Below are positions 19,825 through 61,870 of a stretch of 64,000 nt of DNA, one piece after another. The stretch is from Octopus vulgaris (Eukaryota): the NCBI GenBank assembly GCA_951406725.2, contig OX597836.1:22506001-22570000 (forward strand), in the 5' to 3' direction. Numbering within the stretch: position 1 is the first letter of the stretch; the number at the start of each line of letters is the position of its first letter. Position numbers and translations under genes: made by a program. The notes under the pieces were generated by a model. That model was given only the letters and a program-made list of their open reading frames with translations. It did no database searches and was not told the origin of the DNA.

Positions 19825-20743
19825 ATGTGTGGATATGTGGAATACTAGACGTGTACGTGTGTGTGTCTGTATTAGTGTTTATGTCTGTAAAAGTTTAAGA
19901 GAATGAGTGGTGGTGGAGGTGGTGGGGGTGTACCAAAAAAATCTAAATTTTAGTAAATTTTGTGTTGTTTTCCTGTTTTCCAGACAGTAAATTATCGTTT
20001 GGCTATTATCTAAAAGTATAATTACATATGCGTATGTATGAATACATTTATATATATGTATATATGTATATGTGTGCATCTAGGTTTGTATATGTATGTA
20101 TATTCATGTATGTGTGTATATATGCTTCCATATGTGTGTGTATATGTGGTGTATGTCTGTATATATGTCTGTATGGATGTAAGTATGTAACATGTATTTA
20201 AGAATGTAATATAGAAGTATATATATGTGTATGAGCTTGTAAGAGTGTATTCATATATGGATGTGTGTGTGTATTTGTAAGTATATATATATATATATAT
20301 ATGTTTTCCAGATGTATGTATATATGGTGTCTTCTAAGATTTATATAAATTCTTGTTTTGCAAAATTCCAGTTTGTCACTAAGAAACTGAGACAGCTTCT
20401 TCGTGTAAACTGAGGCAGTTCCAGGAGATTGTAAATATGTGTGCGCATATATGGATGTGCAGCTACACAGATAGATATATGCATTGTCTAACCATTTTTA
20501 TTTATCAGAATTCCTCAAAGATAGAATTCTGGTAAATAACAAAGAAAGTTCCATTGTTGGAATTCTGAAAACAACAGTAAGTGCTACATGCTGAAATTTC
20601 AGAAAGTCTTTAAAATGTTTACTGTTCCACTTAAAGTTCATATCTGTCAATAATACAGTTCTATATTTAAGAGGTGAGGAATTATGTACATTGTTTACAT
20701 TATTCATTTTTGACAGATATTTGTCCTATTCTTGTTTGTTGTT

Positions 20744-20789
20744 AACACAATGTATCGACTGAAATACCCTCCAGCCTTCATCAGGTGTC
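20744..20789 (-). ncRNA. Minimal type I hammerhead motif (mutated GAAA and cleavage triplet)
   Basis: GACAC-CTGATGA-A-GGCTG gagggtattt CAGTC-GATA-C-ATT-GTGTT. Confidence 0.65.
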
Positions 20790-21005
20790 TTGAGGAAATT
20801 TCAAACCTGGATTCTCATTCCTAAGGTATTTTTTGATGTTGTTGTTGATATTATTATTATTATTATTCAGGTCACTGCCTGGAATCAACTCGGAATCTTG
20901 GGGTTTGTAGCCTGTGGTTTTAACCACTATGCCATATGCCTATGGGCATATGGTGTAGTGGAGAAATACCTTAGGAATGAGAACCCAGGTTTGAAATTTC
21001 CCCAA

Positions 21006-21048
21006 GACACCTGATTAAGGCTGGAGGGTATATCAGCCGAAACGTGTT
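21006..21048 (+). ncRNA. Minimal type I hammerhead motif (G8 mutated, 3-nt deletion)
   Basis: GACAC-CTGATTA-A-GGCTG gagggtatat CAGCC-GAAA-C-GTGTT. Confidence 0.65.
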
Positions 21049-21339
21049 AACAACAAACAAGTGTAATTTTACTTACTCTTCTTTTTTTCTTCTCCCTTTT
21101 AATACCTCATATAAGGCTCTACGTCTCTGAGTTCAACTACTGGTGGCAGTTCATTGAACTCCACCAATACTCCAGGTGGATCAATCTTGTTTCCGCACAT
21201 GTCTACTGGTCTATCATATGCTTCTTTGAATAACTTAAAACAATATAAATGAATAAGCATTACTTTTGACAAAGTAATCTGAATGCTGAAGGATTAAACG
21301 AGGATGAAGATAACATGTATGCACACGTACACACATCAT

Positions 21340-24121: not shown

Positions 24122-24169
<48 letters not shown>

Positions 24170-25582
24170 GTTGTGTCTGGGGAGAGTCATTTTCTTTTAG
24201 TGCCTTATTATGTCCCTAACTCCAGCTGCAGTGATCAGCTTGTCGAGTTCCTTGAGGACATTACTCAGATCACTGACAGTGGCTCATGGGTGGATGTTGT
24301 CTACCTTGACTTTGCTAAGGCTTTCAACTCTGTGCCACACAAAAGGCTTATGGTCAAACTCTCTGCAATGGGTGTGAGGGATGACCTTTTTAACTTGTTG
24401 AAATCCTTCATTCTCAACCGAAAGGAGGTAGTCACAGTTCTAGGACAGCATTCTACACCATATGAGATGTCATCGGGTGTACCACAGGGATCTGTCCTTG
24501 GTCCCCTCTTGTTTGTGGCATACATTAATGACATAGATGCAAATTTAAAGAATGCCACAGTATTAAAATATGCAGACGACATCAAGCTGTACCTTGAAAT
24601 CAAGAGGACAGATCCTGTTGTCTACAGCTCTTTCCTGCAATCAGACCTGGACACAATGCAGCAAGGGATCACAGACTGGCAACTGAAACTGGCTGTGGAC
24701 AAGTGTACCACCATGCATTTTGGGAGAAAAAACCCTGCGTCCACATACTCCCTCCACAACACTGATATCAAGAAATCCTCTTGCGAGCGTGACCTAGGCA
24801 TCACTGTCAGCAGTGATTTGCGTTGGACAAAGCATATCTCTAAAATTGTCAAGGAGGCCGAGGGTGTCTTGGCATCACTCAGCAAGACTTTTGTTAGCCA
24901 CTCTCCAGCCATCTATTTAAAACTGTATACAGCTATGGTACGACCACACTTGGAATTCACATCATCAGTTTGGAACCCCTATCTTGCTCAGAACATTCAC
25001 CTCCTGGAATCTGTTCAGAGACGTGCAACCAAACGCATACCCTCCATTAGACACCTACCATATTCTGAGCGCCTTGTTTCCCTGGGCATGGATTCACTGA
25101 AGCTCCGGCGTCTGGCGACGGACTTGGTAAACGCCCACAAAGTTGTCAACCACCTCACCAATAACAACACTGAACACCTTTTTGATCTCCATGTGTCTAA
25201 CACACATGGACATGCCTACAAAGTCAGAAAACAACACAGGTCCCATGACTTTCGGAAACATTTCTTCACGCTCAGAGTTGCTGAAGCATGGAATAAACTG
25301 CCTGCGTCAGTTGTTGACTGCCATGACACTGCATCATTTAAGGCCCTCATGCTTCCCGAAATCCATCGAAACTACACCTGATTATATATGCACTCTAGAT
25401 GAGTTGTAGTGCACCTGAGCACTGTACACAATGTTTATTATTATTTTTTAACACGAAATAAATTAGTAAATTAGTGGAAACTTTACTGGTGAGTGTGTTT
25501 CCCCAGACACAACAAAATATGCTTCAACACACAAACTCACATAAAGAATCTTGCAAACCAAATCCAAAAACGAAGTATATAC
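24170..25582. mobile_element. Family F element with inverted halves (24170-24212 and 25446-25582), split by the CR1 insertion
   Basis: gttgtgtctggggagagtca..gccttatta | tttaacac is contiguous at 28640-28690; tccccagacacaac is inverted at about 25500. Confidence 0.7.
24213..25445 (+). mobile_element. CR1-type LINE, 5'-truncated; RT ORF open to 25381; (TTA)n tail; inserted in a family F element
   Basis: VDVVYLDFAKAFNSVPH, SGVPQGSVLGPLLF, KYADDIKLY, ERDLG, VRPHLE..VWNPY, LESVQRRATK, FFTLRVAEAWNKLP. Confidence 0.93.
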
Positions 25583-52200: not shown

Positions 52201-54195
52201 CAAAATTCTATCCTTCCACAAGCTCAAAAAGGTTGTAAAAGAAACTCTTATGGGTGCAAAGACCAATTGCTCATAAACAAAATGATTGTAGAGAATTGCC
52301 GGAGCAAAAACAAAAACCTGAGTATGGCATGGATAGACTACAGGAAAGCGTATGACAGTGTCCCACATAAATGGATACTCAAGGCCCTTGAGATATACAA
52401 GATCTCTCCTGTCGTCTCAAAATTCTTAGAGAATAGCATGACCATGTGGAACACACGTCTCTTTCTAAGCCATAGTAATGGGATGAGCCAGTCCAACAGC
52501 ATCAACATCAAACGAGGCATCTTTCAAGGTGACTCCCTCTCTCCATTACTTTTTTGCATGGCACTGATCCCACTCTCAAACGAATTGGATAGTACTAGAT
52601 ATGGGTACAAAGTTTTTAGTAAATTAATAAACCATCTTTTCTATATGGACGACCTAAAGCTGTTTGCCAGGAATGACCAAGAGCTAGAAGGGCTGCTAAC
52701 AACTGTTAAAGAATTTAGCAATGATATCGGAATGGATTTTGGCCTTGATAAGTGTGCTAAAGCAACTTTTGTAAGAGGCAAGCTCAGGCAAACAGCTTCT
52801 GTTAAATTAGATATTGACACTACCATCAAGGAACTTGACCCACAGGAAAATTACAAATACCTAGGAATCAACGAAGGAGATGGTATACATCATGCTACTA
52901 TGAAGGAAAAAATAAGAAAGGAATACTATAGGAGAATAAGGCTTGTACTGAAGACTGAACTCAACTCCAAAAATTGCATTGAGGCCATTAACACCCTGGC
53001 ACTTCCAGTAGTCCAGTACAGTTTTAATATCATTAACTGGAACCTTACGGAACTCCAACGCTTAGACAGGAAGACAAGAAAGTTACTGACATCCAAGAGC
53101 ATGCACCACCCTAAGGCAGATGTAGACCGCTTGTACCTACCTAGAAGCAGCGGGGGGAGAGGAATGATGCAATTAGAGCTGTGCTATAAGACCTCTACTG
53201 TAGGAATGAACAGGTACCTATCTAGTACAAAGGACTGGATGCTGCGACTTGTGCGCGAACACGAAAGCAACAAAAAGCTGCATTCTATTGTCAAGGAAGC
53301 TTATAAGTTCGAAAGGGAACTAGACATTAACCTTGAATCAGATGAAGAGCCGGAAACCACTGCTACCAAGCAAGCAAAGCGAATCAAGCAGACTGCAAAA
53401 AAGAACAGGCAGAATCAAATTGAGAGGCGGTGGAGCCAGAAGCCCCTGCATGGACAATATATTCTCCGAAGCCAAAATGCTGATGTAGACCAAGCAACAA
53501 CCCATCAGTGGCTGAAGAGCTCTGGATTGAAAGCAGAGACTGAAGGTTTCATAATGGCAGCACAAGATCAAAGCTTGTTTACCAGAAATTACCAGGCTAA
53601 CGTTCTCCGAAACGGTACTGACCCTAAATGCAGATTCTGCGACACATTTGACGAAATGATAGACCATCTCGTTTCGGGATGTCCTGTGCTGACACCAAAC
53701 GAATACAAAAATCGCCACGATAGGGTAGGACAGTATATACATTGGAAGATATGTAAACACTACAAATCCGACACTCCTGCTAACTGGTATGAACACCATC
53801 CTCAGCCAGTTGTTGAAGGTAAAGATGTCACCATCCTCTGGGATTTTCCAGTCAACACTGACAGAACGATCAAGGCTAATCGACCAGACATAATTGTTAA
53901 AGACAGGGAAGAAAATACCTGCAGACTAATAGAAGTAAGCGTCCCCACTGATAAAAATGTATCTGTCAAGGAATTTGACAAACTTAGTAAATATAAGGAC
54001 CTGGAAATCGAAATACAGAGGATGTGGAATCTTAAAACAAAAACTGTTCCTGTTATTGTAGGTGCCCTAGGTATGATAAAAAAGGGATGTCAGAAACACC
54101 TAGACAATATCCCTGGAAAACCATGTCTCAAGGAAATCCAAAAGATTGTGCTAACAAGTACTGCCCACATCCTTAGAAAAACCCTATCAATGTAA
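52201..54195 (+). CDS. R4/Dong-type non-LTR retrotransposon ORF, 5'-truncated: RT, CCHC zinc knuckle and restriction-like endonuclease; element extends to about 54370
   Basis: QKGC..GCKDQLL, AWIDYRKAYDSVPH, RGIFQGDSLSPLLF, HLFYMDDLKLF, YKYLG, CRFC..HLVSGC, RHD, RPDIIV..LIEVSVP..KLSKY; open for 665 codons from 52201; (AAT)n on both sides. Confidence 0.92.
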   Translation, partial: QNSILPQAQKGCKRNSYGCKDQLLINKMIVENCRSKNKNLSMAWIDYRKAYDSVPHKWILKALEIYKISPVVSKFLENSMTMWNTRLFLSHSNGMSQSNSINIKRGIFQGDSLSPLLFCMALIPLSNELDSTRYGYKVFSKLINHLFYMDDLKLFARNDQELEGLLTTVKEFSNDIGMDFGLDKCAKATFVRGKLRQTASVKLDIDTTIKELDPQENYKYLGINEGDGIHHATMKEKIRKEYYRRIRLVLKTELNSKNCIEAINTLALPVVQYSFNIINWNLTELQRLDRKTRKLLTSKSMHHPKADVDRLYLPRSSGGRGMMQLELCYKTSTVGMNRYLSSTKDWMLRLVREHESNKKLHSIVKEAYKFERELDINLESDEEPETTATKQAKRIKQTAKKNRQNQIERRWSQKPLHGQYILRSQNADVDQATTHQWLKSSGLKAETEGFIMAAQDQSLFTRNYQANVLRNGTDPKCRFCDTFDEMIDHLVSGCPVLTPNEYKNRHDRVGQYIHWKICKHYKSDTPANWYEHHPQPVVEGKDVTILWDFPVNTDRTIKANRPDIIVKDREENTCRLIEVSVPTDKNVSVKEFDKLSKYKDLEIEIQRMWNLKTKTVPVIVGALGMIKKGCQKHLDNIPGKPCLKEIQKIVLTSTAHILRKTLSM

Positions 54196-59724: not shown

Positions 59725-61870
59725 TTCCTGGATTGCAAATGCATAACCTTCAAAGTGTGATGTGATGTAGTGGTCTTGTGTCCAGGAGAGGATGTGCTTC
59801 ATGTCAATTCTACTGTTTTCTTCATGTATAGTCTTTTGTATGCTGAGTGCTTTCCATCCAGGTCTTCTCTGAGGTAAGAGAACCCAGCTGTTTTGGGGCT
59901 GTATAGGAGATCATCAGGAAGAGAGTGTTTCTTGAGGAACTCACTGCCAACTCATACAATGTTGCTTACTTTACTTTTCAGCACTGCATTTATATATCTA
60001 TTTTTGCTGCTGTTGTTCATTAAGTGCTGCCTGAGTGATACCATATGGCATTTGAAAGCCATCTGCACTAATCTCAGGCCTCTACCACCTTCATTTTTTC
60101 TTAGATAGAGCATATAAAACATCACTGTTTCTGTGGAAATTCCCAGTTGTTGTCAGGATTTTGCAGGTTTTGATATCTATGAAGTGGATTTCCTCTACAG
60201 ACCAATCAAGTGTCCCAAACGGGATCAACACTAGTATTGAAAATGCATTGTGAGATATTTTGTTGTAAGAAGAGAGTTCTGACTGCCATAGTTTCCTAAG
60301 CGTGGTGTAATATTCTCTATCTTTATTCACTGTGCCTTCATATGATACATTTTCATCTATGCCTAGGTACTTGTAACATTCTTTGTGTGGAATGGGGAAG
60401 ATAGAGAGACCATTGATGCTCAGGTTTTGGGTTTGGGGGACTGACTTTGCTCGTTCTATAACCAAATATGAACATTTCTTTTGGCCAAATTCCATGCCTA
60501 TATCAGATGAAAATGTTGTTATTAATTCCAGTTGTTCTTTGGCATTGTTAACACTTTTAGCATAAAGCTTCAGGTCGTCTACAAAGAAATTATGAGTTAC
60601 ATTGATATTTCTTGCAGCTGAAGATCCTAGCATGTAACCATTTGTTTTCTGCAATAGGAACGATAAAGGATTCAGAGCCAAAATGTTAAAAAGTACAGAA
60701 AGACTTTCTCCTTGGAATATTTCCTTTGAAATGCCTATACTATCAGAAACGATTATTCTGTTCTCAGTTGAAACAGTAAGAACTGTTGTCCATGCCTTTG
60801 TGAGTCTTTCTATAGCAGCAATTAAGGCAGTTGTTACCTTTGCCAGATGTAGGCACTTCAACAGCCATGAATGAGGTATAGAGTCGAATGCCTTCTTATA
60901 GTCAAGCCATACTGCCACAAGGTTTCTGCATCGTTTTCTTACTTCAGACAGTACAACTTTGTATATTAAATGCTGTTTGGCACATCCCCACACTCCCTTC
61001 TTTCCACCAGCCTGTTCATCAGTCACAATGTTGCTCGACTCACAATGGTCCTGGAGGAATTGGTTGAGGCAACTTGTGTACTGTTTGTACATAGTGTTTA
61101 GGCAAGCAATGGGTTTGTATTTTCCTGACATCTTGGTGATTTCATATTTGGCAACAAGATTTGTCCTTGCTATAGCAAACCAATTTGGTATATCAATCTG
61201 ACCTTCCATAATCCTTTTGAACAGACATATCAATTGGTTTCAATAAAATGTCAGCTTCTTGTGCCAATATCCAACTATTAGTTCCCTCCCAAATGCCTTC
61301 CCATTCTGCAGTTTGCCTACTGCTATAGTGAAGGTGTCTGCATCAATTTCGTATGTTTTACTGTTAGTGCTGGTACAGTATTCTCTCTCAATTGTATTTG
61401 ACCATGATGCATTCAGGTTGAAATCCTTCTTTCCATTCCAAATTTTTTACCAGAATAATTGTAGATCTTCTTGGGAGGGAGCTCTCTTAATGGTAATGTT
61501 TTCCTTCCTCATCCCTCTGCATAAAGCTTGTGGGTTGGAAGCAAACTTGTGATTGATACTGGCTCATTCAAAAATTCATATGCAATAGCGGAGTTTCTCG
61601 CTCATCATCCTGAGTTCATGTTTTAAGGTGATTAGCTTTCCCTCAAGAGCTCGGTGTGAAGAGTTGCCATAAAGTCTCATTAATTTTTGTCTAAGGTAGA
61701 CCAGGTGAGGTGTAAACTCATTTTTCTCCTTACATTTCATTGATGTAGTTAACCATCCGATATGGCAGCACGTGTTGTTCATATTTTCTTCAAGTTTTCT
61801 TTTCCGTCTTGGTTGTTTCTGTTCAGTAATTTTGTTACTTCGTTTACTGTAGATTTCTCCTAGGTGTTCT
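59725..61870 (-). pseudogene. Decayed R4/Dong-type non-LTR retrotransposon (RT region); 3' end lost
   Basis: YKPIACLNTMYK, EQAGGKKG..GC, WLDYKKAFDSIPHSWL, IFQGESLS, HNFFVDDLKLY, YKYLG, and FEGYAFAIQE in a downstream frame; frameshifts. Confidence 0.88.

Follow-up and report, generated by a model that had tools for sequence, protein, structure and literature searches.

Is the short repeat at positions 20650-21062 of the window, the 64,000-nucleotide stretch of Octopus vulgaris DNA analysed here, a SINE in its own right or a part of a larger mobile element? [quoted passage not shown] Judged by its sequence, the element is the terminal repeat (pLTR) of a Penelope/Poseidon-type retrotransposon and not a stand-alone SINE. 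Both its structure and the link to Penelope are well supported, and we hold them to be very probably correct.

Structure of the locus

Sequence inspection resolves the locus into two inverted arms which meet at 20942-20943 and represent a single head-to-head insertion. We use a family numbering in which positions 1-75 are the head, 76-105 the simple repeat, 125 the ATG, 159-199 the hammerhead with the predicted cut after 194, and 287 the long end. The long arm (20656-20941, minus strand) is a complete pLTR copy covering positions 1-287, with 91% identity to the family majority. Read along the minus strand it starts with a tRNA-like head (20868-20941) that contains an A box of the Pol III internal promoter type at 20924-20934 (family majority TGGCGTAGTGG) and a B box at 20881-20891, for which sequence and family alignment reveal a 1-nt deletion in the window copy. 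The head is followed by an (AAT)n/(AAC)n linker (20838-20867), whose length varies from copy to copy in the family alignment, and by a body segment 5' of the hammerhead (20790-20837) with an ATG at 20818-20816 that opens the 838-codon frame of the partner element. The minimal type I hammerhead lies at 20744-20789, with the cut predicted at 20749/20748 and an architecture as described in the accessible part of PMC4209133. The 3' part (20656-20743) includes a one-sided tail of ∼25-45 nt and corresponds to the early coding region of the partner ORF. Six more bases on the same strand (20650-20655) match the continuation of the ORF and reflect either a staggered long end or microhomology with the target.

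The two nucleotides at 20942-20943 form a palindromic junction centre between the arms. They are followed on the plus strand by an inverted copy of the first 18 bases of the head (20944-20961), a type of junction that recurs in many other family loci, and by the short inverted arm (20962-21061). Comparison with the minus arm and the family places this arm at positions ∼107-212, so it ends earlier than usual. Starting from 20944, the plus arm is 91% identical to the minus arm over 101 nt. Neither of the two window arms has an intact hammerhead core: A14 and G16.2 are changed in the minus arm, and the plus-arm hammerhead (21006-21048) has a changed G8 and a 3-nt deletion at the cut site. There is no clear target duplication at this locus, the best flank match being 6 nt. 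We also noted that the flank at 20640-20650 (plus strand) repeats 11 nt of element positions 223-233, and that the body contains a second B-box-like stretch inside the frame (20810-20793, minus strand; family ∼134-150).

The preliminary description had listed tRNA-type A and B boxes, (AAT)n, a hammerhead, an AT-rich tail and an inverted second copy, and all of these motifs were present where it had placed them. It had also described the two copies as carrying different lesions. One of these lesions, the 3-nt gap of the plus arm, is a deletion that recurs throughout the family. Rfam returned neither a hammerhead nor a tRNA in the 20650-21062 region and, among the 150 of 354 matches listed, only miRNA matches driven by microsatellites; ARAGORN called no tRNA, including with a relaxed threshold on the head.

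The repeat family

The genome that we searched comprises 2.8 Gb in ∼30 chromosome-scale contigs and is rich in microsatellites. A 25-mer from stem II had 3921 exact matches genome-wide and its reversed control had none; the family is therefore not a product of chance. As 18 of 178 arms match this 25-mer exactly, we arrive at a rough estimate of 39,000 arms. The majority line of 30 genomic copies aligned end to end is an intact minimal hammerhead, with GACAC/GTGTT as stem I, CUGAUGA followed by an additional A, GGCTG/CAGCC as stem II, and GAAAC-GUU, and it equals the motif that the preliminary description had rebuilt from the two damaged window copies. The palindromic stem III, the extra base after A9 and the G10.1-C11.1 pair are all present. 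Core and stems are still intact in 24 of 127 arms. Arms diverge from the majority by ∼4-5% at non-CpG sites, and the mutation rate of the core was 3.0% versus 5.2%, a comparison confounded by base composition; family copies decay neutrally.

It had been proposed that the stems be checked for covariation, and this is seen between families. In L300, L421, L422 and one family of Hydra type, stems I and II are paired although their sequences differ; our hammerhead script found no fit for L424 or for two Neptune-type families (Hydra-type and Neptune-type being clade names that we assign from motifs). Folding recovered stems I and II with weak z-scores of −1.4 to −1.9.

The head was compared with 30 tRNA loci of the host (34 matches, the majority Lys and Thr). 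The nearest was tRNA-Arg(TCG/TCT) with 49-51 of about 75 positions identical; given that tRNA-Ala reaches 47, the isotype is tentative. By eye, nearly all of 100 B-box matches continue into a trinucleotide repeat. Head and body follow each other on one strand in 25 of 30 loci picked by the head, which bears out the claim that the two parts are linked in other copies.

The partner Penelope element

Past position 287 the repeat continues in 17 exact matches, in frame with a reverse transcriptase (RT) ORF; a shared continuation of this kind follows 2 of 100 long ends. In the majority sequence the frame that begins with the ATG at 125 runs for 838 codons, and its stop lies 29 nt before a head, giving the unit order head-(AAT)n-hammerhead-tail-ORF-stop-head. 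This single ORF fits a PLE-type RT (PLE, Penelope-like element) with a GIY-YIG endonuclease at the C-terminus: it contains the motifs GLNF, DKG and YVDD and a terminal YSIPCSC/YKGET. RVT_1 matched it with an E value of 3e-6, under the cut-off, and the Pfam GIY-YIG profile did not match the ORF fragment; homologues of the ORF share Pfam PF28514/PF26215 with GIY-YIG-bearing PLEs. In full-length homologues from other organisms, the N-terminus carries the residues that the hammerhead region encodes, and the N-terminal motifs of P0132 and P0283 match the body-encoded start of the partner frame. The in-frame ORF, the stop 29 nt before the head and the homologue N-termini together identify the putative SINE as the pLTR of a Penelope element. 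We take the clade to be Penelope/Poseidon from the motifs and the absence of a Neptune-type linker (PMC8557442, accessible part). Separately, we observed that the residues just before the hammerhead-encoded motif of P0132 and P0283 could be a translated tRNA 3' end, a speculative hint at tRNA heads in relatives.

A first look yielded 459 candidate ORF starts genome-wide. ORF end, stop and head follow one another at L282, L286, L289 and L298, a head precedes the ORF at L247, L285 and L289, and L289 has a head, the hammerhead, the ORF and a second head. The body is fused upstream of the ORF at 17 of 30 ORF-start loci. A whole head before the ORF was seen at only 2 of these 30 (L247 is a third), fewer than the survival curve suggests. 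ORF DNA is retained at 28 of 134 loci picked by body patterns, mostly as the ORF 3' end upstream of the head. At L282, ∼18 nt before the head, the sequence that separates it from the ORF stop looks like an eroded, inverted version of the first 18 nt of the head, as if the master element had kept an old fold-back junction.

Neptune-type and Hydra-type families were also considered as partners and were rejected, having different hammerheads and no shared body; they were kept as controls. The search for partners used Pfam GIY-YIG (148 matches, with 30 loci and 35 stretches examined) and the Hydra-type endonuclease (150 matches, with 30 loci and 20 stretches examined). A DNA search for close relatives returned one metagenome locus and seven loci in genome collections, and none in the viral contigs searched. 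No A or B box was found by pattern in these eight loci, and relaxed ARAGORN calls there look like noise.

An autonomous partner of the kind sought thus exists, and the idea that a Penelope enzyme mobilises the repeat is supported. A LINE-derived 3' end with a poly(A) or simple-repeat tail is absent: the 3' end of the repeat is the start of the Penelope ORF, and the 100 long ends directly meet flank. Of the proposed hybrid, the 5'-terminal tRNA-like head, A and B boxes included, stands, but this head is within the autonomous element's own repeat, and with a head 29 nt after the partner's stop the notion of a SINE separate from its partner has to be given up.

The solo copies could still be a true non-autonomous SINE, transcribed from their own boxes and copied in trans by the Penelope protein, independently of ORF-linked masters. 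We regard this as rather unlikely, though it can coexist with the explanation that we favour. Short copies far outnumber ORF copies (the 3921 exact stem II matches versus the 459 first-look ORF starts), and the linked 163A+232G type is absent from 26 repeats running into the ORF, as would be expected of such a SINE. However, 163A+232G arms do occur at loci holding the ORF 3' end (L126, L136, L333, L350), and by eye 100 long ends have no common downstream flank except the ORF, bar one duplicated pair. Solo copies moreover end at or before 287 and so lack the ORF sequence that, according to the accessible part of PMC11167929, Anolis PAc needs in vitro. Subfamily markers were found both with and without ORF DNA.

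The insertion footprint

Head-to-head pairing was found at 94 of the 134 loci selected through body patterns; the window locus, as first described, is such a Penelope-style inverted pair. Exactly one arm is long in 82 of the 94 pairs, neither in 10 and both in 2. The 3' ends of the arms cluster in two zones, with 120 of 241 at 240-264 and 108 of 241 at 275-287, and the long ends are spread over 283-296. Of 100 pairs, 63 have flank repeats of at least 7 nt, where shuffling gives a mean of 4.8 (65 of 99 in a recount made without the control), and the mode of the target duplication length is 12-13 nt. The sequence upstream of 100 heads, classified by eye, is an inverted arm in ∼69 cases, plain flank in 20, an ORF end in 9 and a direct copy in 2. 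PLE insertions with an inverted copy, a one-sided tail and a target duplication are described in the accessible parts of PMC8557442 and PMC3846280, and the tail of Anolis PAc is reported as the stretch between two internal RT start sites (PMC11167929, accessible part).

Six overlapping loci were removed before the pair, arm-end and marker counts. The pair-count set includes L126-L129, which were chosen for widely spaced matches. L126, L127 and L130 look like segmental duplicates; L126-L130 were left out of the 5'-stop and the recounted long-end analyses, and L127 and L130 out of the duplication-length analysis.

The same footprint bears on the term retrozyme, that is, on spread as a non-LTR retrozyme via circular RNA released by two hammerhead cuts. 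The hammerhead is of type I and derived from a pLTR, as has been proposed for retrozymes (bioRxiv 10.64898/2026.07.22.740005, accessible part). However, the copies are inverted pairs or solos, with a direct copy before only 2 of 100 heads, and they end at +1, ∼250 and 287 and not at the cut site. The label fails, as the copies form no head-to-tail arrays and the element does not end at the cut site, and we consider a circular route highly improbable.

A recurrent deletion at the predicted cut site

The 3-nt deletion of the window plus arm is present in identical form at the predicted scissile bond of 55 of 271 arms, the window plus arm included. At this place 57 arms have a gap, about five times as many as at any other gap position of 108-190, where the number is at most 11. 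Eight other listed positions with 2-nt microhomology had 0-1 deletions, and a true AAC tandem had 6-8. The scar, as we call this deletion, was present in both, one and neither of the paired arms in 5, 22 and 38 cases, where independence predicts 3.9, 24.1 and 36.9. Three subfamily markers counted in the same way are shared between the arms (8/10/61, 11/11/67 and 5/2/67). The scar is unlinked to these markers, and by tercile of divergence it was found in 18, 18 and 15 of 73 arms. As it is independent of the partner arm, of the markers and of divergence, the scar arises at insertion, arm by arm. No scar was seen in three other Penelope-like families of this genome, where 23 of 24, 5 of 5 and 5 of 5 copies were intact (small samples).

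Two candidate sources of the scar could be rejected. A subfamily with a dead ribozyme does not account for it, as the scar is unlinked to subfamily markers and independent between arms, and slippage after insertion is contradicted by the lack of a rise with divergence. From this independence it also follows that reverse transcription took place separately for each arm, a constraint on models of inverted Penelope insertion; fold-back copying of a single cDNA was rejected as the sole route, given that the arms do not share the scar.

We consider self-cleavage of the RNA the probable cause of the scar, reasoning from the pattern of deletions. An alternative with appreciable weight, though below even odds, is slippage of the RT at the folded junction of stem I and stem III without any cleavage, the hammerhead being a structural or protein-binding signal only. 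Deletions across stem II are indeed raised as well, at a lower rate of up to 11 arms per position at 176-184, and other deletions do not end at the bond: only 1 of 80 does so exactly and 8 fall within 195-197, against a mean of 1.8 per position, with no convergence. For PAc, moreover, insertion did not need cleavage and no RNA-seq ends lie at the cut site (PMC11167929, accessible part). Against slippage, the deletion is the exact product predicted from a nick after U17 followed by 2-nt re-pairing, this one position exceeds the other gap positions by the factor given above, and one arm (L334) has a 16-nt insertion exactly at the same bond. Truncations of the 5' end are only slightly raised at the bond (0.005 versus 0.003 per nt), which, like the lack of scars in the three other families, speaks against cleavage.

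Evidence on a possible Pol III promoter

The tRNA-like head is likely to be the Pol III promoter of the repeat, and the chance that the element uses Pol III appears to us about even to likely on the sequence evidence. Of 98 arms that reach the start of the head, 66 have their 5' stop within −12 to +10 of the head start, at a rate of 0.029 per nt compared with 0.003-0.006 in neighbouring zones, a five- to ten-fold difference. For loci picked by the head the same is true of 14 of 15 arms. In the family majority both boxes match their consensus, and the pLTR of the window family contains no TATA-like motif. In L421 and L422 a TATA-like motif lies ∼40-50 nt before the hammerhead and there is no A or B box.

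A run of four Ts is a Pol III terminator. The 2,670-nt unit contains no such run, counted on the majority line of one family that is in places only 2 copies deep. The mean after base shuffling is 4.9 (P 0.005), and P is 0.067 by a dinucleotide Markov model and 0.03-0.04 by codon shuffles. Where individual copies have runs of four Ts, most of these are private. In seven further retroelement ORFs of the genome, two of them LINE-type RT ORFs of the window, there are 6-14 runs each. Of 8 stretches of distant homologues, 7 have roughly as many such runs as expected, or more, and L422 has 0 where 1.1 would be expected. The 5' step and the absence of four-T runs would fit Pol III read-through.

The step has a second possible origin, as a 12-nt palindrome at the head start could alone produce it without a start site. 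This is part of an alternative in which the family consists of Penelope copies truncated at the 5' end in the usual way, with a head that is the fossil of an insertion behind the ORF and has no promoter function; the element would use Pol II read-through or an unseen promoter, and the RT would create the 5' step by snapping back on the palindrome. The palindrome is also present in ORF-linked copies, palindromes at the 5' end of pLTRs and inverted junctions are described in rotifer PLEs (PMC3846280, accessible part), ORF DNA is retained at the 28 of 134 loci mentioned above, and a whole head before the ORF is limited to 2 of 30 loci. We nevertheless judge this alternative unlikely. About 20 of 100 heads meet plain flank at −7 to 0 without a long inverted arm, both boxes are at consensus in the majority, and the family has neither a run of four Ts nor, unlike L421 and L422, a TATA-like motif in the pLTR.

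In RNA data from a related organism, comprising three raw-read runs and a contig run, the reads divide roughly evenly between the strands, in libraries that may be unstranded, and form no pile of ends at the hammerhead cut site.

Proposed mechanism

The best explanation, to which we assign a probability of roughly 0.6, is a head-to-head pLTR insertion that likely contains a Pol III promoter and was likely made by the element's own RT-endonuclease, with a likely hammerhead cut of some of the template RNA in the cell. The RNA would start at approximately −7 to +1 of the head and pass by way of the hammerhead into the ORF and on to the second repeat. One RNA would then contain two hammerheads, meeting the dimer model set out in the accessible part of PMC4209133; an inverted genomic pair cannot supply such a dimer, because its motifs are on opposite strands. 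The protein would prime internally at two sites, ∼250 and 287, as observed in vitro for Anolis PAc (PMC11167929, accessible part), with ∼287 primed on one target strand and ∼250 on the other. Priming in the first repeat would give short SINE-like copies and priming in the downstream repeat would give copies reaching into the ORF 3' end. Each nicked target strand would prime its own cDNA, and the two cDNAs would join at the palindromic 5' end or through microhomology. Where the template had already been cut after U17, the cDNA end would re-pair over 2 nt on the 5' fragment and skip 3 nt.

This best explanation leaves unexplained how an uncapped RNA cut 70 nt inside the ORF is translated. Ribozyme-assisted cap-independent initiation is described in fungal viruses (PMC13725137, accessible part), and Pol II read-through from host genes could be the source of the mRNA instead. 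Tentatively, and with more doubt than confidence, the parts may be joined into one reading: an autonomous, protein-coding Penelope element replaced a Pol II promoter by that of a tRNA and cleared Pol III terminators from all 2.7 kb of the unit, a single locus gives rise to the full element as well as to SINE-like copies of its first repeat in their tens of thousands, and the scar records in vivo cleavage by a Penelope hammerhead before reverse transcription.

Relation to known elements

The family resembles EN+ PLEs in several respects, as far as the accessible parts of the sources describe them (Anolis PAc, PMC11167929; Adineta Pen2a, PMC3846280; overview, PMC8557442). These have one RT-endonuclease ORF, a pLTR which overlaps the ORF start and holds a hammerhead, and insertions with an inverted truncated 5' copy, a one-sided tail of 30-40 nt, target duplications and a junction palindrome. 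In contrast to the TATA/Inr-like or unspecified promoters given there for the pLTRs, the window family has the tRNA-like A/B-box head; its unit is also free of four-T runs and copies consisting of the pLTR alone dominate, unlike in the described EN+ PLEs. The hammerhead agrees with the minimal hammerheads of metazoan PLEs (PMC4209133, accessible part) in the CUGAnGA core, the extra base between 9 and 10.1, the G10.1-C11.1 pair, the palindromic 15.2-16.2 and the 5-bp stem I. A recurrent deletion at the scissile bond acquired at insertion is a feature of the window family that is not mentioned in that part of the source, which states that there is no in vivo evidence. The role of the hammerhead in Penelope elements is called unclear in PMC8557442, and for Anolis PAc, the single element tested in vitro, RNA-seq did not reveal any products of cleavage (PMC11167929; both in the accessible parts). 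A scar acquired at insertion in about one fifth of the arms would make in vivo cleavage countable from genomes alone.

A tRNA-related sequence and a type I hammerhead are likewise combined in one short repeat in Schistosoma Sm-alpha and Sj-alpha. Sm-alpha is treated as a SINE-like or retrozyme monomer with a canonical, tested hammerhead, and the accessible parts of PMC8490949 and PMC4918200 mention no link to an autonomous Penelope pLTR. Non-LTR retrozymes are also short hammerhead-bearing repeats related to pLTRs (PMC7229834; bioRxiv 10.64898/2026.07.22.740005), but form head-to-tail arrays and circular RNAs, whereas the window family forms inverted pairs with target duplications (accessible parts of both sources). 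The footprint and the ribozyme are known already, as is the combination of tRNA and hammerhead from Schistosoma. The accessible parts of PMC8967140 and PMC10886601 contain nothing on a tRNA-promoter Penelope element or a cut-site scar, and the literature listings and abstract beginnings that we searched gave neither an autonomous Penelope element with a tRNA-type promoter nor a cut-site scar. The octopus repeat annotation of 2026 lists SINE and Penelope families, and the word 'ribozyme' is absent from the accessible main text (PMC13282606).

Since our literature search covered few subscription papers and no repeat databases, the window family may already have been catalogued as an octopus SINE without the Penelope link. 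Ohshima and Okada reportedly described tRNA-derived retroposons of octopus in 1994, the families OK, OR1 and OR2, with an origin from tRNA-Arg. By this description they would share a tRNA-Arg-like head with the window family. If true, a tRNA promoter in the repeat of an autonomous element would lead directly from a Penelope element to a SINE-like family, and some of the octopus SINEs now in catalogues would be repeats of Penelope. Within host transcripts, the numerous inverted pairs would be expected to fold into double-stranded RNA.

Other elements observed

Penelope-like ORFs, several with hammerheads, also occur at L421-L427 and L300, in records filed as bacterial genomes or metagenome contigs; these are likely eukaryotic contamination. 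A further GIY-YIG family (L106-L115) has a duplicated 3' segment of ∼290 nt and no hammerhead by pattern. A young Neptune-type Penelope family (L061:1745-4087 and others) has intact 781-codon frames at no fewer than 15 listed places and a hammerhead with a U3-A8 core variant. The Hydra-type Penelope elements L206, L207 and L210 have intact frames of 976-1091 codons with long Asn-rich inserts, and their hammerhead has a long stem II loop. The window itself contains LINE-type RT ORFs at 24125-25381 (plus), 52201-54195 (plus) and 60091-61239 (minus), with RVT_1 E values of 1e-22 to 1e-25. There are also distant inverted matches of ∼300 nt (32531-32848/56961-57278, 12992-13282/41122-41412 and 8802-9090/46568-46856), which resemble dispersed copies of other short repeats, one of them with a tRNA-like start.
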